DNA of 62,488 bases, the filler included, from Hausera hauseri (lineage: Eukaryota), in the NCBI GenBank assembly GCA_046269625.1. It is 14 parts of 14 records of this genome, joined end to end, with 100 filler letters (N's around TTAATTAATTAA, not from the genome) between each part and the next. Parts side by side here need not be neighbours in the genome. Positions count along the whole stretch, not along the records: positions 58,346 to 62,488 come from JBJURY010737099.1; 13 more parts are not named here. The stretch is one strand, 5' to 3'. Below, in pieces: positions 14,178 to 62,488 of this stretch (positions are counted from its first letter, which is position 1; the number at the start of each line of letters is the position of its first letter). A model generated the notes under the pieces. That model did no database searches and was not told the origin of the DNA. It saw only the letters and a program-made list of their open reading frames with translations. A program made the translations under genes and the position numbers.

Positions 14178-17100
14178 TTTTATTGCGTATTTCAAGAATG
14201 GTGCAAACGGAGGAGACATTATACTGTGATGTAAAGACAAAATCAACTTTGTGATGCTGCTTTATTGACAAATGAGTTCGAAGGCAAATAGTAGGTTTAT
14301 TTGTGTCAATGTTAATAATAGTGGCGCGTTCCATCAATTCAGTGAGTGGTATAGCTGTAGTAATGGTGTATGTAGCCGTTATAGGTATTAGGAATGCTAG
14401 AAAGATGGGGAAAAAGATAGCCGAGTATCGGTTCTGAATGAAGTGTGCAGGGTAATATTATGACGTATTCATGGAGTGAGTTTTGTGCATAGCTGCCACT
14501 TTGGGCTCTTCTGTTGTAAGTGATTCTAACTCTTTCGCGTATGAAATCATTATATGATGTAGGTGCTCGAGTCACTCGTTGAACAGGCAGCTTCATATTT
14601 GTCAGGTCCTTTCTGGATAAAAAGTGTTTGTGGACGTACATCAACAACTTTGTACGGTCCTTGACTTGTACATGTTAATTTTAACGATTTACCTTTCTTC
14701 ATCGCAGGGTAGTGAACCATTATGTAATCTCCCATCTTATAAGTATGGGGTCATGCTTTCTTGTTAAATCTCTTTTTATATCCGGCTCTGTACTTTTCTT
14801 CAAACTGTTTTGCTTCGCGTTGAAAGTATTCGAGTCGTTTTAGCAAGATCTGGTACTGATCGTCCATGTGATCTCTGGTTAAAAAGGATTATGGTAATAA
14901 TTCCGTATCTAAGGTTAGTAAAGGTAACTGTCCGAACATTAACTCAGAGTAAATGATTAGTACTTTTGGTAGGTGTCGTATTAATTGCAAAGGCAGTAGT
15001 TTTTAAATGGTTATGCAAATCTTTTTGATCATTTGCTACCTTTGTAGAAAGGATACCTTGGATGGTACGATTCATTCTTTCGACCATACCGTTACATTGT
15101 GGGTGGTATGATGTCGTTAACAAATGTTTGCATTGGAATATTTTTGACAATTTCTCGAAGAATTCGCTAATGAAACATGGTGTACGGTCAGTTAACAACT
15201 GTTTCGGGGTGCCCAGTACAGCAATAATTTTGTAGAAAAAGGCTTCAGCAACTGTGCTACTGGTCATGCTTTTTAATGACACCAATACAACGTAGCGAGA
15301 AAAGTAGTCAACAATGGACAGTATATATTTGTATCCTGAGTCTGAAGCTGGGAAGGGTCCGGAGATATTTATTGAACACACTTTCATTGGCTTTTGTGCT
15401 TTAGGTAAGCTTCCTAAAAACGGCTTTACACGAAATCCTCTATCTTTCCTTGTGGCGCATATTTTACACGAACGTACCCATCCTTCAATATGCTTATTCA
15501 TTTGGGGCTAGTAATATTTTGCGGTTATACACTTCAAAGTCTTATTTAAAGATGGGTGTCCAGCTAAGCGTGAATCGTGTTCTTGCAACATGACAACCTT
15601 GATGGCCGGTGTGGGTACAAGGATCAGTTTTCTTTCTCCGACTCTTAGTCGTAAAATGCCATTTTCGATTTCAATATTTTTTCGGTTCTTTTCATAAAAT
15701 TTTTGAATGTGACTTGATATTGAGTCAATTAATTGTCCGCTGATTAATTGTTTGATTCGAACAATAAAGGGATCTTGGTTTTGTAATGTCTCGATATTTC
15801 GTTCTTGAATTTGGCGTTGTTCTTGCACCACATCGTTAATGATTTTCTCATTCAATTGTTTGTCATTCTCAATATATAATGGTTTATAAACTGCAGCTAC
15901 TATCTTATTGTATGGCATTCTCGAAAGTGCGTCGGCGTCTCTTTTCTTTGCCAGGACGATATTGATATTCAAGATCATAATTCAAAAGTTCCAACTTCCA
16001 TCTTTGGATTCGACTTGATACATGTCTATTGTCGGAGCATAAAGATAAGAGTGCCTTATAATCAGTAAATATTGTGATTTTATGACCGTAAACGTAATAC
16101 TTCTAATGTCGCAATCCATCACGAATAGCTAGTAACTCTAATTCAGTGGTTGAGTATTTTTGTTCTGCATTATTTAACCTACGTCCTTCGTAGGGGATTA
16201 CGTGTTCAGTTGCTTTTTCTGGATTTTGCTGGGCTAATATGTAACTAATAGCTTTTATGCTAGCATCGGTTTTCAGAATAAATGATAACGAAAAAGCTGG
16301 GTATCTCAATATAGGTGCTGATATCATTCGCTTCTTAATCTCGTCAAATGCATTTTGGTTTTTTTCTGTCCATTCTCATTTGTGATCCTTTCTTAAGAGT
16401 TTATATTGAGGCTGGTTAATTTCCGCAAAGTCAGGTATAAATGTAACATAAAATCCTCCCAAATCTAACCAAGCTTTCATTTCGTGGACATTGGTTGGTG
16501 GGGGATATTCCAATATTTTGGATATTAAATCAGGACTAGTCGGAATTGCTTGGTTGGAAACAACAAATCCAAGATATCTAACTTCTTTCTTGCACCATTC
16601 ACATTTTTTCGGATTTAACTTTAATTTCGCGAGTCTAATTCGGTCGAATACTTTTTTAAATTCAGCTAAATGCGCAGACCATGTCTCGGACGCGATGAGA
16701 ATGTCATCAATGTATGACAAACATCGTACTCCTTTTAGCACCAGGCGAATAAATTCTTAAAAGAATGTGGGTGCTGTTTTTAAACTAAATGGCATACAAG
16801 TGGATTGATAGACTCCGGTGCTGGTCTTGAATGCAGTTTTCCATCGATCTTCTTCAGCTACGAGGATTTGCCAAAACCCACTTTGTAAATCTAATGTGGT
16901 GAAATATTTACAATCTTTAAGTTCATCTATAATATATCGTATTCGGGGAATCGGATAAGCGTAATTCATCAGGTGTTTATTTAAGGTAACGTAATTTACA
17001 CAAACCTGGTTTAGTCGTATTAGCCTTCTTGGCCATAACTATGATAGAGGGCCATGGAGATTGACTTGGTTCTATAATACCTTTATTGAGCATGGATTGA

Positions 17101-21251: not shown

Positions 21252-22750
21252 TTAGGTTCTGACACACGCCTTCTTCTTGACAAGATCAAATGTAGTGGGG
21301 AATAACTGTTTCGCCTCCTTGAGTTCTTCGGCAGGGCGGTTCTTTACTAAACTATCCAGTGAAGACGACATGAAACGAAAGCCGTTTATGAAGCGAAACC
21401 TGATTTTACGAACATGCTTGGTCAATGTGATGTATTTTTCCTCACTATTAGGGATCACATCAATGTTTCCTTCAATACTGCCCAGTTCCCGAACAATGAA
21501 ATGGGAATCATAGCCACTGAGATTATGGAACACTACAGGAACATGTGTACGTATTTTGCAACGTAGATTGCAGTTGTTTCATGCTGCGTCCCGATATCTG
21601 CCTATAAAATGGCAACGATCCCTGACTTTATGATTCTCCTTAGTGACTGATTTGGAGCACAAGTAACATGCTGTTGCCTTGCGCCATTCTTCTTGCTGCT
21701 TCGGCATGCTCATTGTATCCTTATGCTGCTGCTGCATATCTTCAATCCTATGAGCCATATCTTCAAGTCGCTTCATGAAATGAGCTGCTGCGCCTGGACC
21801 CCTAAATAGATATGGTTCACTGTCCAGTCCTTTCGCATACATGCAATATAATGACAGCTTATGATATTGGTATGCCGTTGTGCTGCTGTGTTGGGGATTA
21901 GGACTGCAACTCTGAACTGGGCGCCGGATTGATTCAAAGTCGTAATAAATAACTATTGGGACCTTGATCTTCTTCTCGAACTCACTGAATTCAATATAGT
22001 CCTCCTGGGGGAAATCGGGCTTGATACAATAATTATTGTTGTAGTACATATTGTGCTTTGCAAACTTCAACACTGCGACATCACCGCTGAAATGGGTTAA
22101 GCATCGTTTACATATTTCTATTTGTCCATGATGTTTTGTAATTTGTGATCTGACTAGCCGCTCAAAGTCTTTGATCCTAACATAATGTTTCTTTTCTCCA
22201 TCATCTAGTAGGAGCATATCCCTATGATCTTCCAATTCAGTATCGCATATCTGCAGAAGGTAGAATTTGTGCTCCTCATCCAATCCCAAGATATTGATGG
22301 AAATGTTGTTGATTCGACTAAACTTCTTGACTTCATCTATGGATGGAGGGAACTTGATACATTGGAAGTCATAGTTGTGCTGCACATCCTTATATAACCA
22401 AACTCGTGAAGAATAATTTTGACCCCTTACAAGTTTTGATAAAATGACATGCATGAAACACGTGTTGTCGATATTATTGACATTGACACATGTCTTTTTA
22501 TTAGCGATCCAATCAGGGAGCTGAATATATGAACTGCTCCGCATGGGAGAGTACTTGTAAACGAACACAAGCAATCTCTTGATGGTTGCCACAGTCCATT
22601 CACCCTTCTTATCCTAGCTGTCCCAGACTTCACTGATCAGCTTCTTGTGCGCCTCTTGCAACCATTCTGTTATATTGGTGTTTTCCAATATAGGTCTATT
22701 TTTGGTCTTGAAGGCCCTCTTTGAAGGCTTTTTTGCCGTCAACATTGATG
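21252..22750 (-). pseudogene. Adintovirus/Polinton protein-primed DNA polymerase B, N-terminal/exonuclease fragment
   Basis: SSYIQLPDWIANKK.CVNVNN.DN.CF, HYVRIKDFERL, VIYYDFES, C-YL-C..VRDRCHFIGRYR, FHNLSGYDSHFIV, RFMSSSLDSLVKN. Confidence 0.9.
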
Positions 22751-22968: not shown

Positions 22969-23984
22969 AAGATACATCGTGGATCTAAAGTTGTCATTAC
23001 ATCTAAAATCACTTTTAATTTTTTTCCACAAATTATAGGTTCGCACTTCCAATACCCATATGGTTTCAGACATTGCTGAAATGCTGATGTAGTACCGGTA
23101 CATTCTTTTGGGGCCAATTTTATGTGTGACTGAAACTTTTCGGGTATTGCATGTTTTGCTATTAATGAAACGCTGTCTCCAGTGTCTACTGTTGCGTTTA
23201 TATCGAAAGTATCGAAGTGAACTGTCGTATGAGGCCGATTATCTCTTATCAGCTCGGGAAAGGTCAGTATGTCGTTATGATTATCTATATGTGGTTCCAT
23301 TAAGGTATAACTTGCTGCACAAAAATTTGATGATCCATTTGATAACATGACTGTTAAACTATCTGAAGATTGCGTATCATTTATAGGCTCTTTCATTTGT
23401 TGTTTGAGTTCGGTTAAATCCGGGTAGTAAATTACTCGTTCAGCAAAAACTCGCTGTATTTTAGCAGGTGGCATAGTTGAAATCAAATAATTCGTCCTTC
23501 CATTTGGTTGTTCGATATTTTTATCGATGGTTTGTTTATTTAATTTGACTCTATGATGAGGTATAGGTGGCATTGTGTTTAATTTTGGAGACATTGGTAA
23601 TGATACTCTATTCTCTTCCATACTTTGAGTAATAACTGGTTGAAGTATTTCTTCTTGCAAATATCTAAAAATACTGCGCAGCTTTATGTATTCTTCTCTT
23701 GTAGCATACGGATCATTCAAGTCAGATAACTTTGGTAGCCTATCAATTGTTTGTTCGTCAGTTGGACGGGTTTTCTTTTCATACGGAGTGTCTGGCACTA
23801 CATAATTGCTCTTTAATTTTCTTTTCTTCACTGTAAAAAGTTTGCGGATTTTTCTGTTCTTTTTCTTGGAAATATTCGGTTTTGAGTAGTCTCCAAGTGT
23901 ATTGTCATCATCATCTGAGCTTGATGAATTATATTCCAGTATAGAATTGCCAGTCTTAATCCACATGTTTTTCCAATTTACCAC
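22969..23984 (-). CDS. Start of pol of the large gypsy family: ~250-aa linker plus aspartic protease (cut by contig end)
   Basis: RPHTTVHFDTF..VDTGDSVSLI (DTG at 23178-23186); closely homologous to 17800-18628. Confidence 0.88.
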
Positions 23985-26106
23985 GCCATTGTTTTATATG
24001 GTAAGCTTTAATGAATTTACCAAGTGGGGAAAATAGAGCACCAATTGTTCTCAGAGATAATCCTGTCAAATTGTAAATTTCGTATGCATTTAATATTGAA
24101 TTGATATAAACTTTCGAAATTTGCATGATAAAGTAAATAGCTAGAAATCCGGAAGCTACTTGTCCAAATTTTAAAAATTCACCCTACATTTTGTTCCATA
24201 AACTGGAAACTACTTTTGTATAGGCATCGGGCATCCACAATCGATCCCATTTTCCTTCTCCAGCAGAATCATCAATTACTCTGTGAATTCCTCTATTTAC
24301 TACTTGCTCTCGTTGTCTTGGATAGGCTAGAAATTTTACAAATGAGTCAATTTCTTTTTTACTATACAATGCTGACTTTGATACGTCAGTAAACATGTTT
24401 GTTTCAATGGCATGTCTGAGGTTAGTCATCGTCAACTTTTTTGGTTGTTCCTTTACTCTATCTCTATCCGGTAGTCTAACCCATAAGTCTTGATTATCGT
24501 ATTTGATAAATGGCTTGTTCAGTGCTGTACAGTTTTGAATTTCCGTTGGAATTGTGTGTGGTGCCAGTAATACTCTAGTTATAGGCTGAACATATCGAAT
24601 TTCATCTTTATACTTAACTGGTATTTCTGAGTAGCAAGGGGTACCAGTGATTAATGGTAAGTCCAATCTCTTGCATTTGTAGGTGAACAGCACTTCTCCT
24701 AGGACTCTGCCTTGGATTCCTTCGCCAAATGGCAATGTTATTGTTATCATCTCTGGATTTGAAGCGTAAATGGCCAATCCATTTCGTAATGTCTCAAAAT
24801 TGATTTTACAGAAGTTCTACATTGTCTCAGAATATATTTCTTCTATTGTTTTGTGGGTGAGATAAAATAGGAAATCATCTTGATTAGCGATGTAGTCAGC
24901 AATGTTCACTAATTGTGCTCTGTTAACTGGCGAATTATCTGCCTGTGCAATCTCTTTTTCCAATATGAAATAATTTTCATAGTTTGTACTGAACACTTGT
25001 TGTCCACATTTAACGATAACGTCTTGTTGTATAAATTTAACTCCTTCTTTTATATCCTTGGATATTACAATTTTAGGGGTTCTCACTTCTGGAATCACTT
25101 GAGTGTTTGTATTTTCAAAGTTTGTTTCATAGTGTCGAGCGTAACATTTTCCTGTCCTTACATTAAATTCGACTTTTCGAATCTGTACCAATGAGCATTC
25201 ATAGCTCTTGGGCACTGTCCATACTATAGTAGATGACTTCGTGTGACAATGTCCAATTTATAATCTGCAGAAAGATACATTTATCATTGTATTTGTACTT
25301 GTTTCGAAGATAAAGGTATTTTCTTTGATTTCGACTTCATATTGGTCGTGCATTACTACTCCTGAAATAACACCTTTGCCAGTATCAAAACTTCCAACTT
25401 TGAAATTATCTTTTTCATCCTTATGTCCCGCTATCCATTTCTCTTGCTGAGAAATTTGGCCTTTAATTGCTGTTAGTAGTATGTCTCCATATTTCAGTTC
25501 TTGAGTTTCAGTTGCATCTCGTCAATAAGTTGGATTAATCGACAAATATCTAGGCATCGTAGTAGGCTGTATTAAGCAATCATGGTGTAAATGGCCACAG
25601 TAAGAAATGGTGCAAAATACTCGCAATGAGCATTCTAATCCTTTTATGTAAAGCGTGGTTTTATCGTAATAAATAAATAGGTTTTGTAATATTGTTTCTA
25701 GTTTCCTCGGAAGTGCATCCGGGCATGATAGTAAGTCCATGAGTGAGTAGTAACTTCCTTCATAAATTTTGTCACAGTCATATGCCAATATGGTTCCTGA
25801 CCTTTTGAAATTAGAGAATAAAACCAGTATATATAGAATGAGTTGTAAGAAGAATCCGTTAGATTTTGTTCCGTCTGTCTTTTGTATATCTTCCTGAACT
25901 TGTTGCTTCATTGTCTCCATAACGACTTGAACTACTTCCTCTTGAGGTGTATTCTGAGTGATTTCATGAATGGCTTTTTCTAAAGTAGTTTGGCCTACTT
26001 CTGGTTGAGTTATTTTTTCATTTCGTAAGAACAAATCTTTCCATTTACCATATTGTGGTATAATTATCTTGCTAGCTTGGATTATTTTTCCAGCTGTTAT
26101 TTTCAA
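23956..26106 (-). pseudogene. env: Chuvirus/herpes gB-like (class III) fusion glycoprotein (env), ~630 aa from internal signal peptide at ~25854
   Basis: Hydrophobic signal FFLQLILYILVLF, then ILAYDC..YSLMDLLSC..LEC..SYCG; GEVLFTYKC..CYSEIPV..YVQPITRVL..NC; C-terminal membrane block FLKFGQVASGFLAIYFIMQISKVYINSILNAYEIY; a few stops and frameshifts. Confidence 0.82.
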
Positions 26107-26344
26107 CTCTCATTCACTTGCTGCATGCTGAATAGACACTGGTATGAACTGACAGAATTAGTTTAGACCTTGTTATTTATTACTATGAAATAATTAGTAG
26201 TTTTTTTAATCCCAGTCTGATTAAACATGTTTCACTCATAATGTCTGTGAGTAATTTAACGATTAAGATGTTATCATGGTTACTTGCAAGTTACGTGAAA
26301 ATATATCCTTTTCAAAATATGTTTCATTTTATTTTTGCCTACAG

Positions 26345-40172: not shown

Positions 40173-42600
40173 ATCTTAACATCATGAGCACCTTAGAATT
40201 ATTTTCCGCTGATTGCATCAAAGCAACCTGCAAATCAATTTCGCCAAATGCAATTTCTTCCAGAAACGCGTCAACTTCTGAGGCCACATAATTACTCCCT
40301 AAGGTCATTCGTCCCAGCCTGATTGTTTACAACAATTAAAAAGTGTGCATTTCTTACACAAATACGTGCCACATTGCTCCGAACTAACGGCACCTTTCGC
40401 ACATCTCTCATCCGGAAAGAAAAGATAATTAATCCACTGGACTCCCGATCTAATAAGTCAATTTGATCACCTTCGTGAAGATCTGAAAATCCTTGAAATC
40501 TTGGCTTTTCAAAAACTAAACGCGGAATTAAAATTAACTAACGATGCCTCCACCACAGCCACTGGTGCGATATTACACCAAATACACAATGGTGTGGATG
40601 ATCCGTTAGAATTTTATTCACGAAAGCTTACGCAATCAAAAAGCCGATACTCTACATTCGATCGTAAACTCCTGGCCATAGTTCTAGCGGTAAAGCATTT
40701 TAAGCATTTGCTCCTATAACATCAATTCGTCATCCAAATCGACCATAAACTTCAACTTTATATCACGACGTTGAAACAGCCGTCACCCAGACAAGAACGA
40801 CAGATATCATACCTGTCGACATTCAGTTTTTCCATTAAATATATTTCAGGCACCCAAAATTTAGTTGCAGATTTTCTGTCGCGGTCAGTCAACTCAATTA
40901 CAGTTCAGCTAATTTCCTCCTCTGAAGTCTTGAGAAGTAATCAGTCATCATATGATATTCTCCAAACCTTTAAATCAGTCGAGATCATCGATGGAATTGC
41001 CTACGACACATCCAACTCGACTAATAAAAAATCATTCTTGCTCCATCGCTACAAAAGACAGCTTTCACTCACTTTCACTCTCTTTATTATCAGGGTTCAA
41101 AAGCCACATTCCGTCTACTGCAACGCCATGTTGTATGGCCGACTATGCGTACAGATGTACAAGTCTGGGTTAAGGGATGTGTAGCATGTCAACAATATAA
41201 GGTTCATAAACACCTCAAACCACCAATTTATCACTTGCCGTGCACTTCTTGTTTTGACATTGTTCATTTGGATCTTGTGGTCCTTTACCATTCGACTACG
41301 GCTATCAATATATCTTATCCATAATAAACTGCGCTTCTCGTTGGCCAAAAGTCGTTCTTCTTTAATCAACCAACACCGACTCAGTAGCCGATGCATTTAT
41401 CAAGATATGGGTCAGTCGTTTTGATTCACCGCGTCGCATCATAACGGACCAGGGTCCGCAATTTGAAACTGATCTCTTTAAATCTCTGGTAAAACACTTG
41501 GGGATAGTCCATTCCCATACAACTCCGTACTATCCCCAAGCAAATTGTCTTCTTGAGAGATTCCACCGTACCATGAAGATTTCCTTAAAAATCTTGGCAA
41601 ACGACAATCATAACTAGACCTCAGTTCTTTCACTTGTCATACTCAGTTGGCGCAACACGCCATCCACCACCACAGGTTGTGCCTCAGCTAAAACTCTTTT
41701 TGGGACACCAATTCGTGCCCTATTTGAACTCTCCAATTTCGATGAAAGTCCATCAGATGAAGTTATTCCTGCTACACAGTCATACTTTGCATATGTCAAC
41801 TCAAACGCCTTTTGCCGCCTTATAAATAAAGACCAATCCTATATTCTAGGGGACTTATACTCAGCGAAGTTTGTATGGCTGAAAGATCCGTCACCTTCTG
41901 GTTTTCGGCATAAGTACGTTGGTCCTTTTAAACTACTCAACCTATCTTCGCACACCGCTACGATTTTACTTAAGGACAGACCTCAAAAGGTACACATTTT
42001 TAACCTTAAGCCAGCATTCTTCGTTGACGATGACCAGGATAACAGCCCTGTTTCATATTCTAACGCTAACTTCTCTCTTCTCGAGACATCATCTAATTTC
42101 GTCGATGATTTTGATCCGTCGCAGCAATTACTCTCACGTCACAATCAGTTCTCTTCACTTCACTCATCGTCCAGTGCTCCTTCACTACTTACTTTACCGT
42201 CATCGCATGCATATCCTCTACTCATTTCACCTTCATCGCACAATTTGCTTCCACCTCCAGTCTCGCTTTCTTCCTTTTCCCTTTTTCAGCTTCTTCTCCA
42301 CTTTCACCTCTCTATAAAGCATCCTCCCAAAACACCACTAAATCTACAGCATCTCTCTCTAGAAAAACTCCGCAATCACTAGCAACATCTAACTGGTCAC
42401 TCCAAGTACTTACAGTAGGGAGAAGTTCATAGATGGAATCCAACGTCTGACACGTATCAAAATCGAATAGAAACAAGTTCTTCCTTTTCTTACCACAATC
42501 TACACTTATTTTTTTTTCTTTATAGTCTTTCTTTTGCCGCGGGGTTGATGTAGTGCCTGAATTGTGGTCGCACTGAGTGGTTTAGCGAGTCGGTGATGAG
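40173..42600 (+). mobile_element. CsRn1-like gypsy copy 2: RT end, RNase H, IN, Ser-rich tail, G-rich PPT-like tract and putative 3' LTR start (TGTAG at 42549)
   Basis: DASTTATGAIL, PLEFYSRKL..YSTFDRKLLAI, VADFLSR, TDQGPQFE, LERFHRT; collinear with 7650-9407. Confidence 0.9.
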
Positions 42601-45004: not shown

Positions 45005-46490
45005 CTTGCCAAGAACGTCTGGCAGGCTTTTAATGCAGGAAAATAGGGGAATATAGTGATATATATCTCCAAACTGATGTGCTGCTGCTGACAGACATCT
45101 TTAAGAGTTTCAGGGATGTTACAATGAAGAGCCATTCTTTGGATCCGGTTCATTTCTTTACGGCTCCAGGAATGAGTTGGGCAGCAATGCTGCGCTACAG
45201 TGGTTTTAGGCTGCAGATAATTAAGGATTATGATATAATCTTTATAATCGAGAGAGGCATAAGAGGCGGAATATGCCAGGCCATTCATTTGTATAGTGAG
45301 GCCAACAACAATTATATGGCCGAATACGACTCAACAAATGAATCCTCATATATATAATAACTTGATGCCAACAACTTTTATGGATGGGCAGTGAGCGCCC
45401 CATTGCCATATGATAAAGTCAAGTTATTCCAGAATCCTGAAAACATCCTTATACTGGATCTGGATTCCACTGGAGATACGGAATACATAGTGCAGGTGGA
45501 TATGGAATATCCGGTTTCTATCTGAACAAGGTATCAACAGCTGCTATTCGTCCCTGAGAGCAAGCCTGTGCCCCATGGAAAGCAGAGAAAGCTGTTATGT
45601 CATCTGGGTAATAGGAAGAGGTATGTAGTTCAGTACATAAATCTCCAGCAGGCAGTTAAACATGGACTTCGTATTACGAAGGTCCATCGGGCCCTGCAGT
45701 TCAGCCAGTCCAACTAGCTGCAGCCCTACATAGACCTCAATACGAAGTTGCGGACAAATGCCAAGAACGACTTAGAGAATGACCATTTCAAGTTTTACAA
45801 CAGCGTTTTTGGAAAGACTGGAGAATATCTGCAACAGGATCAACATCGACTGGCCTCTGAATGGAAGCGAGCAAAGAAGCTCATTGCCAAGCCCAATTTC
45901 CACAACAGCATCATATATGCGGAAAACTTGGTCGGCATACATATGCTGAAAACGGCATTAGTATTCAACAAGCCCATATATGTGGGTATGGCAATACTGG
46001 ACTTGTCAAAGACCTCAATGTACAAATTTCACTGACATCATGGTTCACAAGTTCGAGTCCATGCAACATATGTGTATGGATACTGATAGTTTCATCTATC
46101 AGATTCATACATATGATATTTATAAGGACTTTGCCCAATTGGCACATCACATGGATACTTCGGATTATCCGGAGGAACATCCCAACAATTCAATAGCCAA
46201 CAAAAAGGTCCTTGGGAAATTCAAAGACTAGGTGAATAGGACAATCATCTCGAGATTTGTACTTCTTAGATCCAAAATGTATACCATTGATATGTGGCCA
46301 AGCAAGATGGCTAAAGTGATTCAAAGGGCGACCTTAGCCAAGAAAATTGGCTCCAATGACTATGTTAGAGATCTGCATGAGCAGACTAATATCATATCAG
46401 AGATGCAAAGGATCCAGTCTAGGGCTCATAACATTGAGACAGTAACATTACAGAAGAAAAGCCTAGATTTAATGGATGACAAGGGGCAGA
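45005..46490 (+). pseudogene. Adintovirus/Polinton pPolB, C-terminal polymerase half
   Basis: IERGIRGGI, LDANNFYGWA, NSVFGKT, KPIYVGMAILDLSK, MDTDS, KKVLGKFKD. Confidence 0.92.
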
Positions 46491-46544
46491 TCCATACAAG
46501 TTCGCATCCAGGTATGATATATGTGACGGTTCCTTTGTTGAGTC

Positions 46545-48930
46545 GTATTCGGCTATATACTTGTTGTTGGCTTCACTATACCGGTGAATGGTCTGGCATA
46601 TTCCGCCTTTTGTCTCTCGATCATAAGGGTCATGTCATAATTCTTAATGATCTGCACCCTGACACCTGTATATATAAGCACTGCTGCCAAGCTCATCCCT
46701 GGAGCCTTAAAGAAATGAGCCGGATCCAATGCATGACTCTTCATTTTAACATCCCTGAAACTCTCAAAGATATCCGTCAGAAGCAGCACGTCCGTATTGA
46801 GGTATATGTCGCTGTATTCTCCTAATGTTCGGCGTTGGAATGCATGCTAGACGTTCTGATCATGCTTGTAGTACATATCACTGATATCGCAATCAGAGTG
46901 GATATTGTAGAAGTCCTTCTTGGCCGGCAATGAGGTCTCATCCAGTGTTTCCCATGATGCCATATAGTTATAGGGAAACACACCTTTCCTTTTGACTAGG
47001 TCAAATGCAGTGGGAAAAAACCGCTTCGACTCCTTGAGTTCTTCTGTAGGGAAGTTCTTCACTAAACTGTCAAATGAAGACGACATGAAAGGGGAACTGT
47101 CTACGAAGCGAAGCCTGATTTTCCCAACATGCTTCGTAAAGGTTATGTACTTCTCATTGTTGGGGATCACATCAATGTTTCCTTCAATGCTGCCCAGTTC
47201 CCGAACAATAAAATGGGTATCATAGCCACTGAGATTATGAAACACTACAGGCACATATGTACATGTTTTGCAACGTAGATTGCGGTTGTTGAAGGTTGCG
47301 TCCCGATATGTGCCTGTAGAATGGCAATAATCCCTGACTTTATAATTCTACTTAGTGAATGATTTGGAGCACAAGTAACATGCTGTTGCCTTGCGCGATT
47401 CTTCGTCTTGCTGCTTCGACATGCTCATTGTATCCTTATGATACTGCAGTATATCTCCAATCCTATGAGCCATATCTTCAAGTCGTTTCATGAAATGAGC
47501 TGCTGCGCCTGGACCCCTGAATAGAAATGGTTCATTGTCCAGACCTATGGCATGCATGTAATATGATAAAAGCTCATGATATTGGTATGCCGTTGTGCTG
47601 CTATATTGGGATTAGGACTGCAACTCTGAACGGGCGCAGAATATCCTTAAAGTCGCAATAGATAACTATTTGGACCTTGATCTTCTTAAACTCCTTGAAT
47701 TCAATGTAGTCCTCCTTGGGAAATTCTGCCCTGATACCATAATTGTTGCTGCAGTACATCTTGTGCTCTTTCAGCTTCTATACAGCTACAGCGCCGCTGA
47801 AATGGGACAAGCATCGTTTGCATATTTCTATTTGTCCATGATGTTTCGTAATTTGTGATCTGACTAGCCGCCCGGTCTTTGATCGAAACATAATGTGTCT
47901 TTTCGCCATCGTCTAATAGGAGCAGATCCCTATGATCTTCCAATTCAGCATCGCATATCTGCAGGGGAAAGAATTTATCATCCTCGTCCAATCCCAAGAT
48001 ATTAATGGACATGTTGACTTTTCCAAATTTTTTAACGTCATCTATGAATGGATGGAACTTGATACATTGGAAGTCATAGTTGTGCTGCACATCCTTATAT
48101 GGTCAAACTCGTAAAGCATGATTTTGATCCGTTAGGAGTTTTGATAAAATGACATACATGAAACATGTCGTTATTATGGACATTGACACGCTTTTTTATT
48201 AGCGATCCAATCAGGGAGCTGAATGTATGAACTGCCCTGCATGGGAGAGTACTTGTGAACATACACAATCAATCGCTTGATGGTTGCCAGAGATCATCTG
48301 CTCTTCTTATCCAGGCTCTCCCCGGCTTCAAGGATCAGCTTCTCGTGCGCCTCTTGTATCCATTCTGCTATGTTGGTGTTTTCCAATATGGGTCTATTTT
48401 TGGTTTTGAAGGCCCTATTGGATTCTTCGCTATCAACACTAATGTATGTGGCCTCCAGTTTCATATTCACCTTAAGGGCTTTGAGCTCAGCCATGTTGTC
48501 CTGAAGAATGCCCTCTGTCTCATCCTTTGTGTATAAGACAAAGTCTCGGAGAGTTGTTTATCCTGTTGCCTCCATAACATCTGCGGCATTTTCTCTTTAA
48601 TGCAGCAGCATCAACTGGCCGCCGTCTTTGGCTTTTTGATGGAGCCGCTGCGTCTGATTTGGCTGCGCATGACACTGCTGCGCATGACACTGCTGCGCAT
48701 GACACTGCTGCGCATGATGCGGCTGCGCGCTTCAATTCTCTAATATTCTTCGCGGCTGCTGCACCACATCCAGCAGCATAATACGAAGCAGATGCGTCAA
48801 TATTATGTTGCTCATTATAGATGGCCTTCTTTTATTTTGATGCTAAGTGACTCAAATGATGTTTGTGATCATAATAAACTGTATGTAATCTGCGCCGCAT
48901 ACAGTCTCATCCTGGACATATATAATAGAG
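46545..48930 (-). pseudogene. Adintovirus/Polinton pPolB, N-terminal half (paralogue of 21252-22750)
   Basis: FHNLSGYDTHFIV, RKGVFPYNY, TDVLLLTDIFESFR, LDPAHF; LKVNMKLEATY..AFKTKN N-terminal region. Confidence 0.9.
48662..48730. repeat. 15-bp tandem repeat GCTGCGCATGACACT (~4.5 copies; SCAAV on minus strand)
   Basis: Seen directly. Confidence 0.9.
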
Positions 48931-49085: not shown

Positions 49086-52000
49086 TGGTGTGGATTTCTA
49101 TACTGTGGTCTTTCATGGTGGGGACTTCCATGATATGGTCTTTCATATTGTGGACTTCCATGTTGTGTTCTTTCATGGTGTGGATTTCTATACTGTGGTC
49201 TTTCATGGTGGGGACTTCCATGATATGGTCTTTCATATTGTGGACTTCCATGGTGTGTTCTTTCATGGTGTGGACTTCCATACTGTGGTCTTTCATGGTG
49301 GGGACGTCCATGATGTGGTCTTTCATATTGTGGACTTCCATGGTGTGTTCTTTCATAATGTGGACTTCCATACTATGGTATTTCATGGTGGGGACTTCCA
49401 TGATATGGTCTTTCATTGTGTGAACTTCCATGGTGTGGCCTTTCATGCTGTGGATTTTATACTACGGACTTTCATGGTGGGGACTTCCATGGTGTGGCCT
49501 TGCATGGTACGGACTGCCATACTATGGTCTTTCATGGTGTGGACTTTTATACTACGGTCTTTCATGGTGGGGACTTCCATGGTGTGGCCTTTCATGGTGT
49601 AGATTTCTGTACTGTAGTCTTTCATGATGTGTTCTTCCATGGTGTGTTCTTTCATGGTGTGGATTTCCATACTATGGTCTTTAATGGTGTGGATTTCCGT
49701 GGTATGGCCTTTCATGGTGAGGACTTCCATACTGTGGTCTTTCATGGTGGGGACTTCCATGATGTGGTACTTCATGGTGTGGACTTCCATGGTGTGTTCT
49801 TTCATGATGTGGAATTCCATACTATGGTCTTTCATGCTGGGGACTTCCATGATATGGTCTTTCATTGTGTGGACTTCCATGGTGTGGCCTTTCATGGTGA
49901 TGACTGCCATACAATGGTCTTTCATGGTGTGGATTTCTATACTGTGCTCTTTCATGGTGTGGACAACCATGGTATAGCCTTTCATGGTGTGGACTTCCAT
50001 ACTGCGGTCTTTTATGGTGGGGACTTCCATGATGTGGTCTTTCATGGTGTGGACTTCCATGTTGTGGCCTTTCATGGTGTGGATGTCCATACTATGGTCT
50101 TTCATGGTGGGGACCTCCAGATGTGGTCTTTCATTATATAGAATTCCATGGTTTGGTCTTTCATGGTGTGGACTTCCATGGTGTGTTCTTTCATAGTGTG
50201 GACTTCCATACTATGGTCTTTCAATGTGTGGACTTCCATGGTGTGGACTTTCATGGAGTGGATTTCTATACCGCGGTCTACCATGGTGTGCTCTTCCATG
50301 GTATGTTCTTTCATGGTGTGGATTTCCATACTGTGGTCTTTCATGGTGTGGACTTCCATGGTATGGCTTTCATGGTGTGGACTTCCATACTGTGGTCTTT
50401 CATGCTGGGACTTCCATGATGTCGTCTTTCATTGTGTGGACTTCCATGGTGTGGCGTTTCATGGTGTGGATTTGTATACTGTTGTCTTTCATGGTGTGTT
50501 CTTCCATGGTGTGTACTTTCATGGTGTCGATTTCCATACTATGGTCTTTCATGATGTGGACTTCCATGGTATGGCCTTTCATGGTGTGGACTTCCATACT
50601 GTGGTCTTTCATGGTGTGGACTTCCATGCTGTGGCCTTTCATGGTGTATACTGCCATACTATGGTCTTTCATGGTGTGGACTTTCATACTACGGTCTTTC
50701 ATGGTGGGTACATCCATGGTGTGGCCTTTCATGGTGCGGATTGCCATACTATGGTCCTTCATGGTCTGGATTTCCATACTATGGTCTTTCATGGTGTGGA
50801 ATTCCATGGTATGGCCTTTCATGGTGTGGACTTCCATACTGTGGTCTTTCATGGTGGGGACTTCCATGATATGGTCTTTCATGGTGTGGACTTCCATGGT
50901 GTGGCCTTTCATGGTGTGGATTTCTATACTGTGGTCTTTCATGGTGTGTTCTTCCATGGTGTGTTCTTTCATGGTGTGGACTTCCATACTATGGTCTTTC
51001 ATGGTGTGGACTTCCGTACTATGGTCTTTCATCGTGGGGACTTCCATACTGTGGTCTTTCATTATGGGGACTTCCATGATGTAGTCTTTCATGGTGTGGA
51101 TTTCCATGGTGTGGCCTTTCATTGTGTGGACATCCATACTATGGTCTTTCATGGTGTGGACTTCCATATTATGGACTTTCATGGTGGGAAATTCCATGGT
51201 GTGGCTTTTGATGGTGTGGACTTCCGTGGTATGGTTTTTCATGGTGTGGACTTCCATACTGTGGTCTTTCATGGTGGGGACTTCCATGATGTGGTCTTTC
51301 ATTGAGTGGACTTCCATGGTGTGGCCTTTCATAGTGTGGATTTCCATTCTATGGTCTTTCATGGTGGGGACTTCCAGATGTGGTCTTTCATTGTGTAGAA
51401 TTCCATGGTTTGGTCTTTCATGGTGTGGACTTCCATGGTGTGTTTCTTCATGGTGTGGACTTCTATACTATTGTCTTTCCTTGTGTGTACTTCCATGGTG
51501 TGGCCTTTCATGGTGTAAATTTCTATACTGTGGTCTTTCATGGTGTGCTCTTCCATCCTATGTTCTTTCATGGTGTGGATTTCCATACTATAGTCTTTCA
51601 TGGTGTGCTCTTCCATGGTATGGCCTTTCATGGTGCGGACTTCCATACTGTGGTCTTTCATGGTGGGGACTTCCAGATGTGGTCTTTCATTGTGTAGAAT
51701 TCCATGGTTTGGTCTTTCATATTGTGGATTTCCATGGTGTGTTCTTTCATGGTGTGTACTTCCATACTATGGTTTTTCATTGTGTGTTCTTCCATGGTGT
51801 GTTCTTTCATGGTGTGGATTTCCATACTGTGGTCTTTCATGGTGTGGGCTTCCATGGTACGGCCTTTCATGGTGGTGACTTCCATGATATGGTCTTTCAT
51901 TGTGTAGAATTACATGGTTTTGTCTTTCATTGTGTGGATTTCCATACTATGGTCTTTCATGCTGGGGACTTCCAGATGTGATCTTTCATTGTGTAGAATT

Positions 52001-53758
52001 CCATGGTTTGGTTTTTCATAATGTAGACTTCCATGGTGTCTTATTTTATGGTGTGGACTTTCATACTATGGTCTTTCATTGTGTGGACTTCCATGGTGTA
52101 GCCTTTCATGGTGTTGACTGCCATATTATGGTAATTCACGGTGTGGATTTCCATACTATGGCCTTTCATGGTGTGGATTTCCATACTATGGTCTTTCATG
52201 GTTGGGACTTCCAGATGTGTTCTTTCATTGTGTAGAATTCCATGGATTGGTCTTTCATGTTGTGGATTTCCATGGTGTGTTCTTTCATGGTGTGTACTTC
52301 CATACTATGGTTTTTCATTGTGCGGACTTCCATAGTGTGGCCTTTCATGGTGTGGATTTATATACCGTGGTCTTTCATGGTGTGCTCTTCCATCGTATGT
52401 TCTTTCATGGTGTGGATTTCCATATTATGGTCTTTCATGGTGTGGACTTCCATGGTATGGCCTTTCATGTGTGGACTTCCATACTGTGGTCTTTCATGGT
52501 GTGGACTTCCATGATGTGGTCTTTCATTGTGTGGACTTCCATGGTGTGGCCTTTCATGATGTGGATTTCTATACTGTGGTCTTTCATGGTGTGCTCTTCC
52601 ATGGTATGTTCTTTTATGGTGTGGATTTCCATACTATGGCCTTTCATGGTGTGGACTTGTATACTGTGGCCTTTCGTGGTGTGGACTGCCATACTATGTT
52701 CTTTCATGGTGTGGACTTTCATACTACGTCTTTCATGGTGGGGACTTCCATGGTGTGGCCTTTCATGGTGTGGACTGCCATACTATGGTCTTTTATGGTG
52801 TGGATTTCCATACTATGGTCTTTCATGGTGTGGACTTCCATGGAATGGCCTTTCATGGTGTGGACTTTCATACAGTGGTCTTTCATGGTGGGGATTTCCA
52901 TGATGTGGTCTTTCATGATGTGGACTTCCATGGTGTGGCCTTTCATGGTGTGGATTTCCATGGTGTGTTCTTTCATGGTGTGTACTTCCATACTTTGGTT
53001 TTTCATTGTGTGGACTTCCATAGTGTGGCCTTTCATGGTGTGGATTTCTATACCGTGGTCTTTCATGGTGTGCACTTTCATGGCATGTTCTTTTATGGTG
53101 CGGATTTCCATACTATGGCCTTTCATCGTGTGGACTTGCATACTGTTGTCTTTCATGGTGGGACTTCCATGATGTCGTCTTTAATTGTGTGGACTTCCAT
53201 GGTGTGGCTTTTCATGCTGTGGATTTATATACTGTGGTCTTTCATCGTGTGTTCTTCCATGGTGTGTTTTTCCATGGTGTGGATTTCCATACTATGGTCT
53301 TTCATGGTGTGGATTTCCATGGTATCGTCTTTCATGCTGTGGACTTCCATACTATGGTTTTTCATGGTGTGGATTTCCATACTATGGTCTTTCATGATGT
53401 GGACTTCCATGTTATGGCCTTTCATGGTATGGACTTCCATACAATGTTCTTTCATGGTGGGGAATTCCATAATGTGGCCTTTCATGGTGTGGACTGCCAT
53501 ACTATGGTCTTTCATAGTGTGGATTTCCATACTATTGTCTTTCATTGTGTGGACTTCCATGGTGTGGCCTTTCATGGTGTTGATTTCTATACTGTGGTCT
53601 TCATGGTGTGTTCTTCCATGGTGTGTTCTTTCATGGTGTGGATTTCAATAATATGGTCTTTCATGGTGTGGACTTCCATGTTATGGCCTTTCATGGTGTG
53701 GACTTCCATACTGTGGTCTTTCATGGTGGGGACTTCCATGATATGGTCTTTCATGGTG
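49086..53758. repeat. Satellite/minisatellite: 15-bp monomers in 30-bp dimers, consensus CATGGTGTGGACTTC-CATACTGTGGTCTTT; fills the whole contig
   Basis: ~310 monomers by length, scattered 1-bp indels, recurring variant blocks. Confidence 0.97.
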
Positions 53759-58150: not shown

Positions 58151-58430
58151 ACATCATTCAGTACGACTTTCTTATAGACAGATATCGTTTTCATGTTCAA
58201 ATAATTGGAATAATAATTCGAGTTGGTTTCCAGTTCAATATTCGCNNNNNNNNNNNNNNNNNNNNNNNNNNNNNNNNNNNNNNNNNNNNTTAATTAATTA
58301 ANNNNNNNNNNNNNNNNNNNNNNNNNNNNNNNNNNNNNNNNNNNNGGAGCTCGTACTTGCCTGATCTTCTCGAGGGTTTATCTTTAACTCGTAGCTGTGG
58401 TATGGCTTAATTCTAACTATCCGAATATAG

Positions 58431-60752
58431 CTACCGTTTTAAATCGGCCGCCTCGGCTCTGCATACCGGACAGGTGGTTTTTTCCGTTACCCAACGTCCA
58501 TTTTTTAAGCAGTCTCTGCAAAATTTGTGTCGACAATCACGGTTATTTAGCACTACGTATCCCTGTATCAGGTTTGCCTCGCATACCGGGCATTCGTTTT
58601 TCTCTTTTTCCCAATTTTCGTCGTTCAAGTTGACATTGACATGATTTCTATGGGTTCTACTATTAACCCGTCTTCGTCCTGGTATAAATAAGCGAATATT
58701 CTCTTCTGCTTCGGATTTATAGAACTCTTTTTGGGATCACATCCCACGGGTATTAATGTCCAATCGCTGATAGTGTCTCGATCTAAATCCGGAACTTCAC
58801 CAGTCGATAGGTATTTTTGATATTGCTTCTTTAATAACAGTTTAAGTGATTTATCCACGGGAACTAAAAGTTTGCCATTTCTCCTGGACTGGAATATCGG
58901 GGCAACGTATTTTCCTATCTTAGAATTTTTCCAGACATACGTGTTCTCTTAAACTAGTCTGGCAGGCATTAATTTGACAAAAAACATTGCCTCTTTAATT
59001 TTTTATTTTTATAATATTCAGTGGCTATTAGCATCCTGGGGTAATCTGCTGTAGCAGCATAGTGAACATCTTCTGTGGATGTCTTCTTCCGTAGGACGTT
59101 TATTTCTGTTACTTGTTCTTTCTGCTTGCTTGGTTTTCTCGTGGACGTCTCAATGCGGGACTGCATGTCTGACTTTGAGGGTTCTTCTGCTGGTCGTTTT
59201 GATTTTGAATTTCTTCTGACTGATCTCCGTTCCTCTTTCGGTTCCTTCTCTCCTTCTTTACTTCTTTTCTTAAATAAGTAATCGAAGAAGGAGGTTTTTT
59301 TTAGCTGTCTTCCCAGTCTCGATTTCTGAAATTCTGTCTTTTTCTTCTAAATATTTCCGAGGAATTTCGGGTACTTTAAACGGATTATTATTGGTTTTGG
59401 TGTCATAACTTGTACTTTGTTTTTTGTTGGCTGGCCGTTTATCTCCTGTCTTTTCTGTTTTCAATCCCTGGATGGTTATCTGATAGTTCCATTTCGGCGT
59501 AATCTCAACATTTCTTGGTGGTGAGTAAGGACAGAAATGCTTTCTGTAACGTGTACTGATTCCTCCCGGTTTCGGAAAATTCCGTAGGTTTTGTCCGGGA
59601 TTATTGGGAATTTATTCGTGTTCCCACTTAAGTCCAGCATTTATATCCCTTAGGTATTGGGATCGTTGACTAGCGGTCAACAGTCGACTTATTTTTTTAT
59701 TTCCTCCAGTCATGGCTTCTACCATTAGCGTAAATCGGCCTTCCACGGTCGGTGGTAGATAACCCTTCTTCTCTTTGACCTTTATTTCCACTTGTCCCAT
59801 TACAGTTGGATGGGTCTCTATCTCTGTCATTCCGGCTAAGTGCGTTACTGGTATGTTTACTTCTTTTGTCATCCTCTCTACTTCATACCCCACTAAGACG
59901 TATCCGTAGAGACATTGTGCTATTTCCGGTTGTACTAATCAAGAATCTTTCCCATGAGTCAATTGCTCTCTTTTAATCCCAGTAACTTCTGCATAAGTTT
60001 CTAGTACTTTCCTTCTCGGATTAATAATTTTCGAATAGACTTCGGCCCCGTTTTCTTCTCGGATGGATATTTCGATCGGGATATAATTTCCTTCTTCTCC
60101 TTCTCCATTGTTTACTGCGGCAATCCTGATATTCCTGTCGTGGGTTACCAATCTAAACGAATGTAGATTTGCGTCCTGTTCTTCTTCAGTGGGCCTTTGC
60201 CTAAACTCTAAGGGCGGCAATGAGATGGGTATTGTTTCCTCTTCAATTATTTCGATCATCATTTTCACAGTTAAGGCGACCACACGAAATTCCAGCTCGT
60301 AGTTGTGAAAGTTCCTATTGTCAAATATAAAAGTGTTAAATCGGCTTTGCCTTCCTTGGAAGGAGTCCCATTTTTGGTATTTCAACAGATAATAGATTTT
60401 CCCATCGGCCAAATGTACATATATCCTCTGCTCCTTATCCGCTTGGTACTGGGTGATCAGTTTCAAAGGGTATGCTCTGGCATCTTTATTCTCTCTCCAG
60501 GTATATAAATATATAGTTCTGGCCTCTTCGGTTGTTCCTTTCAAACTATTTGGTATCTCGCCAACTTCTCCATATTGAACGAAGTTCTTTCCCTGCAATT
60601 CTGTATTGATTTGCCTATAGCTGGCCTTGTAATTCTGTAACCGTACGCTCACATATTGCTGTAAAAATTCGTCAATACTAAGTTGACTCGTAGTTTCCTC
60701 GGTGTCGATTCTAAGTCAGCTCTGGTTCATCTGGGTCTGATTACTTATCAAT
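58431..60752 (-). pseudogene. 3' accessory ORF of large gypsy element (~770 codons, disrupted) ending in a C3HC4 RING finger
   Basis: Collinear ORF pieces; CPVC..CRHKFCRDC..CPVCR in 58431-58628. Confidence 0.7.
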
Positions 60753-60901
60753 CTAAAAAAGAAAACATAAAGGTTAATCTTTAAACAAAGGATGGTCTTA
60801 AACCAAAACCATTCCTTTGTTTGATTACAAAATAACCTCATCTGTAGTTGTCAGGTTATTTTATCATACGGATTAATAGGAGATTCCAAATCCCTTAATT
60901 C

Positions 60902-62230
60902 TCATTCTACATTTTCATGGCGCTTAGAATGACAGTTTTTGGTAACTAGTCGAAATGTCGCAATTAATATAATGAGAACAAACGTTGATAGTACTGCAAT
61001 AGATACAATCGCTAGGGTAGTTAATTCTAGTAGTGCTCGAGTAGTAATTGACGTTGTAGTCTCGTCATCTATATCCTCATGCGTACGCGATTCTGCGTGC
61101 GTTTTGTCTAAGGTATGCAATATAATTGTTCGGGTTTGTTTGTTCTCTGCATGCACTTGTACTATAAATTCAGATTGTGGTTTCAACAAATTGCATTTTG
61201 TTCTATAGATGTGTTTAAATAATATTAAAATTTGGTTGTTCTGTGTTGTCCGACAACTTATGTATATGTCGCAATTCTGTTTCCTTTCTACAAAGAACAC
61301 GATTTTATACGGATGATCCGAAAATCTGATAGGTATATTCTCCAATTCTGTTTGGGTATGTCGTTTGTGGTGACAGCTAGACGAATCTTTTTGGTTGTGA
61401 TTTCCACTAAAATTTTCCAGATTCTATTTTCTGGATAGTAAATTTATAATTGTATACTTGGTTGATTAGACCGTACCTCGTATAAGTCAAATCTTATTTT
61501 GAACTCCTGGTTCACAGGCACTTTACAACAGGAGCGTTGTACACCTGCGCGAATATAGCAATATTCTATTTTCGGGGTTGATCCAATTGCTGCTTCGAAT
61601 ACGATAGTAATTTCTCGATTGACCGTTAACTCTGTCCGAGTGTCAACCTGAATGCATTGTCTTGCTTTATCGACCGAAATTCTTTGGATATTCTCATCAA
61701 ATAATCTTATGTCTGTGTTGGTAGATCGTAAAATCCCGTTTGGTTCTATTCTATGGTTTTCGTTTCGTTCAGAAATAATTAACTGAAATAGTGGCCTTTT
61801 TTCGTAGATTTTGGATAAGCTCGGTAAGTACAGACGGTATGTAAGATTGTAAGTGTGTCCTAAATCTATGTTACAACATTTCGTGTAATCTCCAAACTCG
61901 AAGTAACAATTCTTGACTTCTTCTATTGCATTATCTAAAACAATTTCGAACCTTCCGAAATCGTGATGTGGTTTCTGCGCCTTAAATCCAACGCATGTGG
62001 AGATGGGTAAGTAATAGGGAATTGACACTGATTGTAATAATCTTTGAATTTCTTTGATTGATGGTTTTCTTTCCGCTTTAGTAGCTTCCAATTTTGCTCC
62101 ACTTTCCTGACTTCTGCAGATATCTTCCAGTATAGGTTCGTTGAGCCACCTTTTTGTTTGTGTTCTCGAAATGTAAGAATCAATTAACGATATTGCTAAA
62201 ACTATCTGAACATACGATATGGGCCTAGCA
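60902..62230 (-). pseudogene. Type-I membrane protein (~440 aa) continuing from integrase
   Basis: Signal-like PISYVQIVLAISLI, Cys-containing ectodomain, Thr-rich stalk, TM LAIVSIAVLSTFVLIILIATF (~61024-60953), short basic tail; one stop (61444) and one frameshift. Confidence 0.7.
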
Positions 62231-62249
62231 ACTATCGAGGAAGTTTTTA

Positions 62250-62488
62250 TTTCGCGTTGGCGTAAGTTGTAACGTTTACTGAGTCGAATCTCTGTCTTAA
62301 CAACTTTTTGGATTGATAAAATTTCTTCCTTTCCATTTTTGTTTATATATATTGTGCTTGGCGTGACTTTGGTAACTTCGTATGGTCCTCTGCCTGTGCG
62401 AGTTAATTTTAATGAAGTGCCTTTCTTGGCTGCTGGGTAATGTACATAAACCCAATTTCCTTGTTCTATATCATACGGTTTTGCTTTC
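62250..62488 (-). CDS. Integrase C-terminal GPY/F region of the large gypsy family
   Basis: GNWVYVHYPAAKKGTSLKLTRTGRGPYEV..RYNLR matches GDYIMVHYPAMKKGKSLKLTCTSQGPYKV at ~14640-14735. Confidence 0.85.

Follow-up and report, generated by a model that had tools for sequence, protein, structure and literature searches.

A decayed gene for a membrane protein in frame behind the integrase of a Ty3/gypsy element in Hausera hauseri

In a multi-copy Ty3/gypsy element of Hausera hauseri the frame of the integrase runs on, without a stop, into a gene for a membrane protein. The window, i.e., the whole stretch of DNA analysed here (62,488 nucleotides), consists of 14 contigs of 4-5 kb which are joined by N spacers and are all internal pieces. 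Contig 14 occupies positions 58346-62488, and the gene sits at one end of it, on the minus strand. The open frame and the anatomy of the protein can be read directly from the translation, an intact relative exists in the databases, the first stop in the gene is private to the window copy, and the integrase end is tied by lineage to contigs which carry a fusogen. The gene is real and conserved, an accessory membrane gene within a gypsy lineage that is complex and Burro-like. The full explanation that we prefer stands at about an even chance: a decayed accessory gene of the element would have coded, in frame with the integrase, for a type I protein of about 460 residues with three fibronectin type III (FN3)-like domains, acting in attachment or adhesion beside a class III fusogen, itself inferred.

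The open frame, the membrane protein and its relatives

The minus frame of contig 14 is open for 347 codons from position 62487 to a stop at 61446-61444. It begins within the GPY/F module which Ty3/gypsy integrases have at their C-terminal end (62299-62487, cut by the contig end, with GPY at 62388). This module alone has no Pfam match, and it is 53% identical over 51 residues to the integrase end of contig 4 (E 5e-15). Then follows RYNLR (62260-62274), a basic motif close to where gypsy Pol usually ends; the protein P0009 ends 22 residues past the same motif, and on contig 14 no stop comes after it. A reading made from the sequence alone had stated that the frame is open through RYNLR and a hydrophobic stretch to 61444, which is correct, and had put GPY at 62487, which is the first base of the frame and not the motif. 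The 267 codons behind the integrase contain no stop in the frame of the gene vs. 15 in each of the other two frames, and an open run of 267 codons did not occur in any of 2000 order-2 Markov simulations of contig 14. There is no Met in the 347-codon integrase/ectodomain frame and none in the second frame, which carries the transmembrane segment (TM); the gene has no introns.

What lies behind the integrase, in the same frame, is one type I membrane protein. It starts with a predicted cleavable signal peptide which is internal in the frame (62155-62232) and has its h-region at 62214-62182 (11-residue KD 2.34); ahead of the signal stand seven K/R residues against two D/E, which fits insertion from cytosol to lumen. 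The signal is followed by a charged spacer predicted to be helical (62032-62154) and by two four-Cys beta sandwiches, domain A (61753-62031) and domain B (61447-61701), both predicted to be FN3-like and both with the pattern C-x(28-31)-C-x9-CC. Then come the premature stop of the window copy (61444-61446), a poorly conserved linker in which the frame of this copy is broken (61316-61443), domain C, predicted with low confidence to be FN3-like (61103-61315), a Ser/Thr-rich acidic stalk in which 9 of 24 residues are S or T (61016-61102), and the transmembrane anchor (60953-61015; 19-residue KD 2.96). The cytoplasmic tail (60851-60952) has a juxtamembrane Cys which is shared with the relative described below, an internal stop at 60904-60902, a YxxI motif at 60868-60857 and the final stop at 60853-60851. 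Tail motifs such as a juxtamembrane Cys and YxxI serve acylation and endocytosis. Hydropathy and charges give the pattern of a type I protein, i.e., a signal, one C-terminal TM and positive-inside charges, and the pattern is repeated in the relative. A Thr stalk and a strong TM beyond one stop and one change of frame had been proposed from the sequence, and both are there. The name glycoprotein, used in the same proposal, looks thin here, with one N-glycosylation sequon in the window protein where 2.6 are expected from the composition (the relative has four).

A HMMER scan of 1.84 billion representatives with the contig 14 protein gave two matches, P0010 and P0011. P0011 comes from a dinoflagellate, is repetitive and was set aside as a spurious match, and the number of true homologues found is one. 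P0010 is an intact protein of 479 residues from a single ENA contig of 4939 bases (HMMER E 1.8e-38). Beginning at the signal and ending with the last residues it is collinear with the contig 14 gene, and the alignment passes through the first stop, the change of frame and the stop at 60904-60902 (E 8e-61), with identities at 89 of 265 and 43 of 143 aligned positions and 11 of 13 Cys in common. The signal is the best conserved region (17 of 26 residues), and the folded domains are 30-39% identical (33/85 in domain B; 26/82 in domain C, where two Cys are shared); the charged spacer has 6 of 39 residues in common, and the linker piece 61316-61443, where the tblastn alignment of P0010 switches frame, could not be aligned with P0010 (p 0.74). 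The TM is found at the same place in both proteins. The gene had been thought to end at 60902, which is probably wrong, since P0010 aligns through that stop to the YxxI end at 60868-60854 (p 0.03 for the last piece alone). The unbroken frame of P0010 together with the shared Cys at one-third identity argues for long-term constraint on the gene.

A signal (62155-62232) that is more conserved than the folded domains is unusual for a plain signal peptide. The excess has a p of about 7e-4, calculated for a region that was picked post hoc among eight, and this comparison hints that the signal may do something more at the junction, be it at the level of protein or of RNA. Other searches were negative within their scope: word-index protein searches gave nothing near or longer than the contig 14 ORF, no related locus was found in the JGI metagenomes, and none was found in a scan of IMG/VR with the contig-4 integrase.

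Further copies were looked for in run X1, which comprises 1,213 million letters of contigs; this size and the transposon content suggest that the host is likely an animal, probably an invertebrate, whose genome is large and rich in repeats. X1 contains pieces identical to the window, and it may therefore represent the same species or sample and not be independent. On contig 14 fall 5019 X1 contigs which cover all 30 bins, and 4130 of these are under 95% alike; the whole contig 14 stretch is therefore a repeat family. Peaks of depth in X1 were not taken as copy numbers. At the stop codon 61446-61444 the window copy differs from 28 X1 contigs, which make up 98% of the summed depth. As the first stop is absent from the other X1 copies, this break is decay of the window copy. 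The sequence-only reading had noted one stop and one frameshift. To judge from the X1 copies without the first stop and from P0010, which is open and collinear here, the breaks in the gene are decay, their private nature being seen for the first stop. In the linker (61316-61443) at least five X1 contigs differ in length, and of the seven length differences among the X1 rows listed none shifts the frame between the linker and the contig end. One X1 contig spans the region from RYNLR to the start of the h-region without a gap.

At 88% likeness 523 X1 contigs match within 61400-62330. The majority of them differs from the window at 29 positions, one of which is on the stop; the other 28 differences create no stop and no ATG. 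Five of these 28 are synonymous (stop row left out), where 22-29% are expected; the pattern looks neutral, as mutations private to a dead copy should. Use of the synonymous counts as a dN/dS test was rejected, since they reflect the decay of the window copy and not the family level; they give no support for selection either.

Predicted fold of the ectodomain

From structure prediction the three beta sandwiches of the ectodomain are likely to be FN3-like. Domains A and B are repeats of each other, with an alignment score of 61 where the best of 5000 shuffles reached 53, and the A/B repeat is also seen in P0010. As a third copy of this repeat domain C gave p values of 0.09-0.87 for the window pieces and 0.025-0.76 for P0010, and its tie to A and B is therefore weak.

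The AlphaFold model of P0010 was built on three rows, i.e., P0010 and two rows from the window. It has a mean pLDDT of 51 and a pTM of 0.34 and consists of beta-rich domains at about 77-161, 191-262 and 327-399, plus a helix at 32-74 which corresponds to the charged spacer and a TM helix at 430-465. The pLDDT of the domains is about 52-78; the blocks which correspond to domain A are at 41-78, those of domain B at 62-66, and domain C is at about 45-55. A model from the single sequence (pLDDT 31) was discarded.

The best Foldseek match is to fibronectin repeats 10-12 (E 7.6e-4). Among the 43 Foldseek rows listed 26 name fibronectin or FN domains, 10 further rows are what we take to be FN3-bearing receptors, and 7 are other folds. 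With VIA-align the best Z is 6.5, to an Fn3 domain of ROBO1 (rmsd 2.8 over 84 of 88 residues, domain C barely covered), and it is tied with bacterial DUF3244 Ig-like sandwiches; the tool regards a match as specific only from a higher Z, and a value under 8 may mean merely a common sandwich. The structural alignments to FN3 neighbours have 2-14% identity. The Atlas matches for P0010 at 0.85-0.87, which we use as leads only, are FN3 membrane proteins, and for the window ORF the Atlas scores go up to 0.84. A Pfam scan of the ORF, of P0010 and of the single domains gave no match to an FN3 profile (PF00041 and its clan), and PDB sequence searches with the contig 14 protein and P0010 gave no match. 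On the E and Z values given, the sandwiches are FN3-like at moderate confidence.

The protein behind the integrase has no match among the Pfam fusogen families, no viral fusogen or Gn/Gc is among the top structural rows listed, though the protein may be of a family outside these rows, and BFVD gave weak phage and unnamed matches with no fusogen listed near the top.

Expression, role and lineage of the gene

In the contig 14 subfamily the membrane gene is in the frame of the integrase at the DNA level. As pol has no stop of its own here, every Pol protein made from unspliced RNA would end in the membrane protein. In the mechanism that we propose the signal peptide likely threads the membrane protein into the ER, and signal peptidase likely cuts it from the integrase. 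The basic residues before the signal would set the direction from cytosol to lumen, so that protease, reverse transcriptase (RT) and integrase remain cytosolic, and at the budding site the protein would be anchored and recycled through the Cys and the YxxI in its tail.

The strongest competitor is separate expression, in which a spliced subgenomic RNA or a start of its own yields most of the protein and the gene shares the frame of the integrase by accident, as with the ORF behind the Cer1 integrase; we give it a real but clearly less than even chance. Among the first ten residues of P0010 are three Met, one of them right at the start of the signal, which makes a textbook N-terminal signal, and because P0010 begins with its own Met the fusion may be specific to a subfamily. 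On contig 4, a badly decayed copy, the signal is in a different frame from the GPY module and has Met codons upstream. A strong splice acceptor 1.5 kb downstream of the signal on contig 14 suggests that the element splices, and the conservation of 17 of 26 signal residues could reflect an RNA signal. In the accessible parts of the literature gypsy env is made from spliced RNA (PMC4276936), and the downstream ORF of Cer1 is numbered inside the polyprotein yet is part of a spliced protein (PMC10309623); in PMC3383448 no mention of splicing terms was found. Against a separate start stands that there is no ATG in the window copy nor among the 28 majority differences classed, and against the spliced route that the acceptors near the signal are weak, the best with 11 of 18 pyrimidines vs. 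16 of 18 at 60753. Moreover, a pol that lacks its own stop would yield a fused product either way. The in-frame fusion that the sequence-only reading described therefore holds for the contig 14 subfamily but may not be general, as the Met of P0010 and the other frame of the contig-4 signal argue; judged from these sequences, only some subfamilies are likely to have the membrane protein fused to the integrase.

The acceptor just mentioned belongs to a region (58434-60773, minus strand) which probably serves the element as an accessory cassette expressed by splicing. At 60753-60773 is the strongest splice-acceptor-like site of contig 14, with 16 of 18 pyrimidines before AG where the next best has 14, and it lies ahead of the next accessory ORF (59615-60715; 258 residues plus 108 after a frame break). 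This ORF is covered by X1 like the rest of contig 14 and has no known family in Pfam and no PDB sequence match. A RING finger at 58434-58736 (PF13639, E 4.5e-9, above cut-off), also on the minus strand, probably represents a ubiquitin ligase which the element carries as a further accessory protein, to judge from the profile match. Between the ORF and the RING finger there is a Lys/Arg-rich region.

For the membrane protein itself we propose attachment or adhesion, on particles or on producer cells, beside a class III fusogen which would be located ahead of pol. This role is the least supported step of the proposal and falls somewhat short of an even chance. The protein could instead be a captured, receptor-like decoy or surface modulator which damps host signalling or defence and is encoded in a 3' accessory cassette together with the RING ligase. 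The receptors gp130, IL-4R, IL-9R, Tie2 and Torso are indeed among the fold neighbours, the short tail has a YxxI motif and no enzyme domain, a RING finger is found downstream on contig 14, and apoptosis and ubiquitin domains are reported for Burro in the available part of its description (PMC6431247). However, the same set of neighbours includes the adhesion proteins fibronectin, tenascin, ROBO, LAR and Dscam, with Z within 1, and the protein searches gave no host homologue which could name a ligand; we give the decoy clearly less than an even chance.

Class III fusogens are found elsewhere in the window. Contig 6 (22972-26109, minus strand) has a broken class III fusogen of the gB/chuvirus type (PF24664, E 4.7e-24 and 1.7e-3) with an internal signal ahead of it, followed by a spacer and an aspartic protease (PF00077, E 1.4e-3, below cut-off); by hydropathy the internal-signal design is shared with the contig 14 protein. 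On contig 8 (31260-35695, plus strand) a gag zinc knuckle (PF00098, E 1e-5) is separated by about 3.6 kb of decayed coding DNA from the beginning of a second PF24664 fusogen (E 1.5e-6), which is 40% identical to that of contig 6. With PF00098 before PF24664 on contig 8 and the protease after PF24664 on contig 6, the class III fusogen falls between gag and protease. Within contig 8 (31115-35914, plus strand) the decayed coding DNA has charged coiled-coil-like ORFs; the order gag, accessory, env is Burro-like, and the contig represents a further subfamily.

Contig 4 connects these contigs with contig 14. It has the protease-RT-RNase H-integrase order of Ty3/gypsy elements (PF00077, RT and RNase H motifs read in translation, PF17921 and PF00665), of which contig 14 has the integrase end alone. 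Translation, alignment and profile place at 14179-14750 (minus strand) the integrase end of a sister subfamily and then, in another frame, a strong signal peptide after which a domain begins that may be related. The GPY modules of contigs 4 and 14 are 53% identical, with a score of 141 against at most 76 for nine other Pol proteins, and the DNA is 72% alike over 72 bases; the nearest integrases in the databases are 30-37% identical. Between contigs 4 and 6 the identity is 57-61% in the protease and 42% in the post-env spacer, and 70% in the DNA. From this homology, which runs through contig 4 only, the integrase end of contig 14 appears to belong to the fusogen-bearing lineage, and the earlier suggestion that this integrase is of a family with an upstream glycoprotein gains support: its GPY module is like that of contig 4, whose protease and spacer match those behind the contig-6 fusogen. 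Since contigs 4, 6 and 14 are about 70% alike in DNA they are regarded as sister subfamilies, and the two-protein design is for this reason inferred and not seen on one molecule. Of the earlier claim of two surface proteins the membrane protein after the integrase stands; the fusogen and the gene are on separate contigs of sister subfamilies, joined by homology.

A faint likeness between the tail behind the contig-4 integrase and the contig 14 protein had also been noticed. In pairwise alignment it is at chance level (score 28 vs. a shuffle mean of 28-29, p 0.46-0.56; 6 of 29 residues identical). With a profile built from P0010 and four repeats in the window it is weakly seen in the 64-residue tail (7.7 bits, p 0.005 in 5000 shuffles). 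Among 669 segments of the window that are free of stops the tail ranks fourth, and two of those ahead of it are unrelated; it fits the first domain better than the second.

It is improbable, in our judgement, that the membrane gene comes from a subfamily without an upstream fusogen, where it would be the sole ORF at the env position as the short TM ORF3s of rotifers are. No contig carries both the fusogen and the membrane gene, the likeness of contigs 4, 6 and 14 at the DNA level is no more than about 70%, and ORFs with TM domains are common at the env position according to the available part of PMC5408684. On the other hand, contig 4 links both ends by homology, as it starts with a match to the spacer that follows env on contig 6 and has at its other end, past the integrase, a signal peptide, and the window has two different fusogen copies in gag-env-pol order. 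The contig 14 gene was likely paired with an upstream class III fusogen.

That the frame is open by chance, or belongs to a host gene beside an inserted element, is hardly credible: the neutral-looking majority differences and the lack of a Pfam family would suit it, but none of the 2000 simulations reaches the length, P0010 is an intact homologue with shared Cys, thousands of diverged X1 contigs cover the gene as they cover the integrase end, and introns are absent.

The boldest form of the proposal postulates two captures, a class III fusogen of chuvirus/herpes type before pol and a host-derived FN3 receptor-binder after the integrase, in one polyprotein with two ER crossings and with a spliced 3' RING cassette. 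We think that it is more probably wrong than right, and by some distance. If true, it would be the division of labour between fusogen and attachment protein of herpesviruses and paramyxoviruses, in a retrotransposon. Herpesvirus class III fusogens need separate receptor-binding partners. For the choice of target cells by non-insect env-bearing retrotransposons published surveys give only the fusogen; a conserved FN3-like surface protein is a concrete candidate for the receptor-binding partner of the fusogen, or for a decoy receptor. Surveys that end at the end of pol would miss such a gene, and the several 3' accessory genes show these elements to be complex. If the link to the fusogen fails there is still an unusual captured ORF at the env position.

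Other parts of the window deserve mention in their own right. Contig 10 (41618-42382, plus strand) has a gypsy integrase end with 153 codons open past GPF into a Ser/Pro-rich low-complexity tail, and this tail has no link to the contig 14 membrane protein. On contig 3 (9508-14077, minus strand) a PF00664 ABC transporter membrane domain, a PF01545 cation-efflux gene and a piece that reads as helicase-like are packed in 4.5 kb; the long open frames may be from the compact genome of another organism, or captured gene pieces. Contig 12 (49086-53758) consists of a long tandem array; both of its strands have open frames, 150-390 codons in length, and CpG is very low (observed/expected 0.14). The stretches 21579-22613 (minus strand) and 46232-47347 read as DNA polymerases of the Polinton/Maverick type, the former without a Pfam match.

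Comparison with known systems

Chary and Hayashi (PMC13524379) have described, in the part of the paper available, errantiviruses of the GAG-ENV-POL type with an HSV/gB-type env in Nematoda, Bryozoa and Platyhelminthes. Like contigs 6 and 8 these have a class III fusogen ahead of a Ty3/gypsy pol. The available text describes no second membrane protein after the integrase, which the contig 14 lineage has, and no accessory protein is described in the accessible text or in seven supplements, nor a fibronectin protein in these supplements. It should be noted that POL was taken as the 3' end in that study and that other ORF arrangements were not sought.

Burro (GYPSM1), the giant gypsy element of planarians, has gag, a long accessory region, a mononegavirus-type env, protease and pol (Arkhipova and Yushenova, PMC6431247). 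In the accessible part of its description it has RING, apoptosis and ubiquitin domains and thousands of copies, and its accessory ORFs are separate or inside the polyprotein (PMC6431247). Burro elements are over 25 kb long and have a single ORF of about 5000 residues which extends from gag to integrase; the window has decayed fragments on separate contigs. It shares with the lineage of contigs 14, 6 and 8 the env before protease and pol, a RING domain (its place in Burro aside) and the thousands of copies, whereas no FN3-like membrane protein is named for it in that part. Eight broken pieces of contig 8 gave no Pfam match to BCL2, BIR, MATH, ankyrin or SUMO-like domains. A fusogen before pol, one half of the design which the sequence-only reading had called unusual, is in view of the accessible portions of these two papers (PMC13524379, PMC6431247) already published.

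Atlas virus, of the BEL/Pao type, has its env fused behind the integrase in one polyprotein (PMC9094657). As far as the available text goes it resembles contig 14 in having membrane proteins in frame behind the integrase, and it combines a receptor-binding and a fusion glycoprotein in one element; in Atlas virus, however, Gn and Gc (class II) come from one captured phlebovirus gene, and here a predicted FN3-like protein after the integrase would be combined with a class III protein before pol, in a gypsy element. The Cer1 CERV of C. elegans and the ORF3s of rotifers are likewise ORFs of a non-env or doubtful-env kind at the env position of a gypsy-type element. According to the available parts of the sources CERV is a nuclear RNA-export factor which is used through splicing (PMC10309623), what the ORF3s of rotifers code for are F proteins, enzymes or short proteins with a TM (PMC5408684), and no upstream fusogen is described for either.

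The FN3 type I proteins gp130, Tie2, ROBO, LAR and FNDC5 have, like contig 14, tandem seven-stranded sandwiches (predicted here), a stalk and one TM. The contig 14 protein differs from them by a structural identity of 2-14%, by having no Pfam match, and by the Cys pattern of its own in domains A and B. A literature search, with most subscription journals and Repbase outside its reach, gave no gypsy element with an FN3-like surface protein and, within the same limits, no element in which a fusogen ahead of pol is joined by another membrane protein behind it. The fusogen before pol was known; what appears to be new, as far as this search reached, is the second, predicted FN3-like surface protein in a gypsy element likely of the gag-env-pol type.
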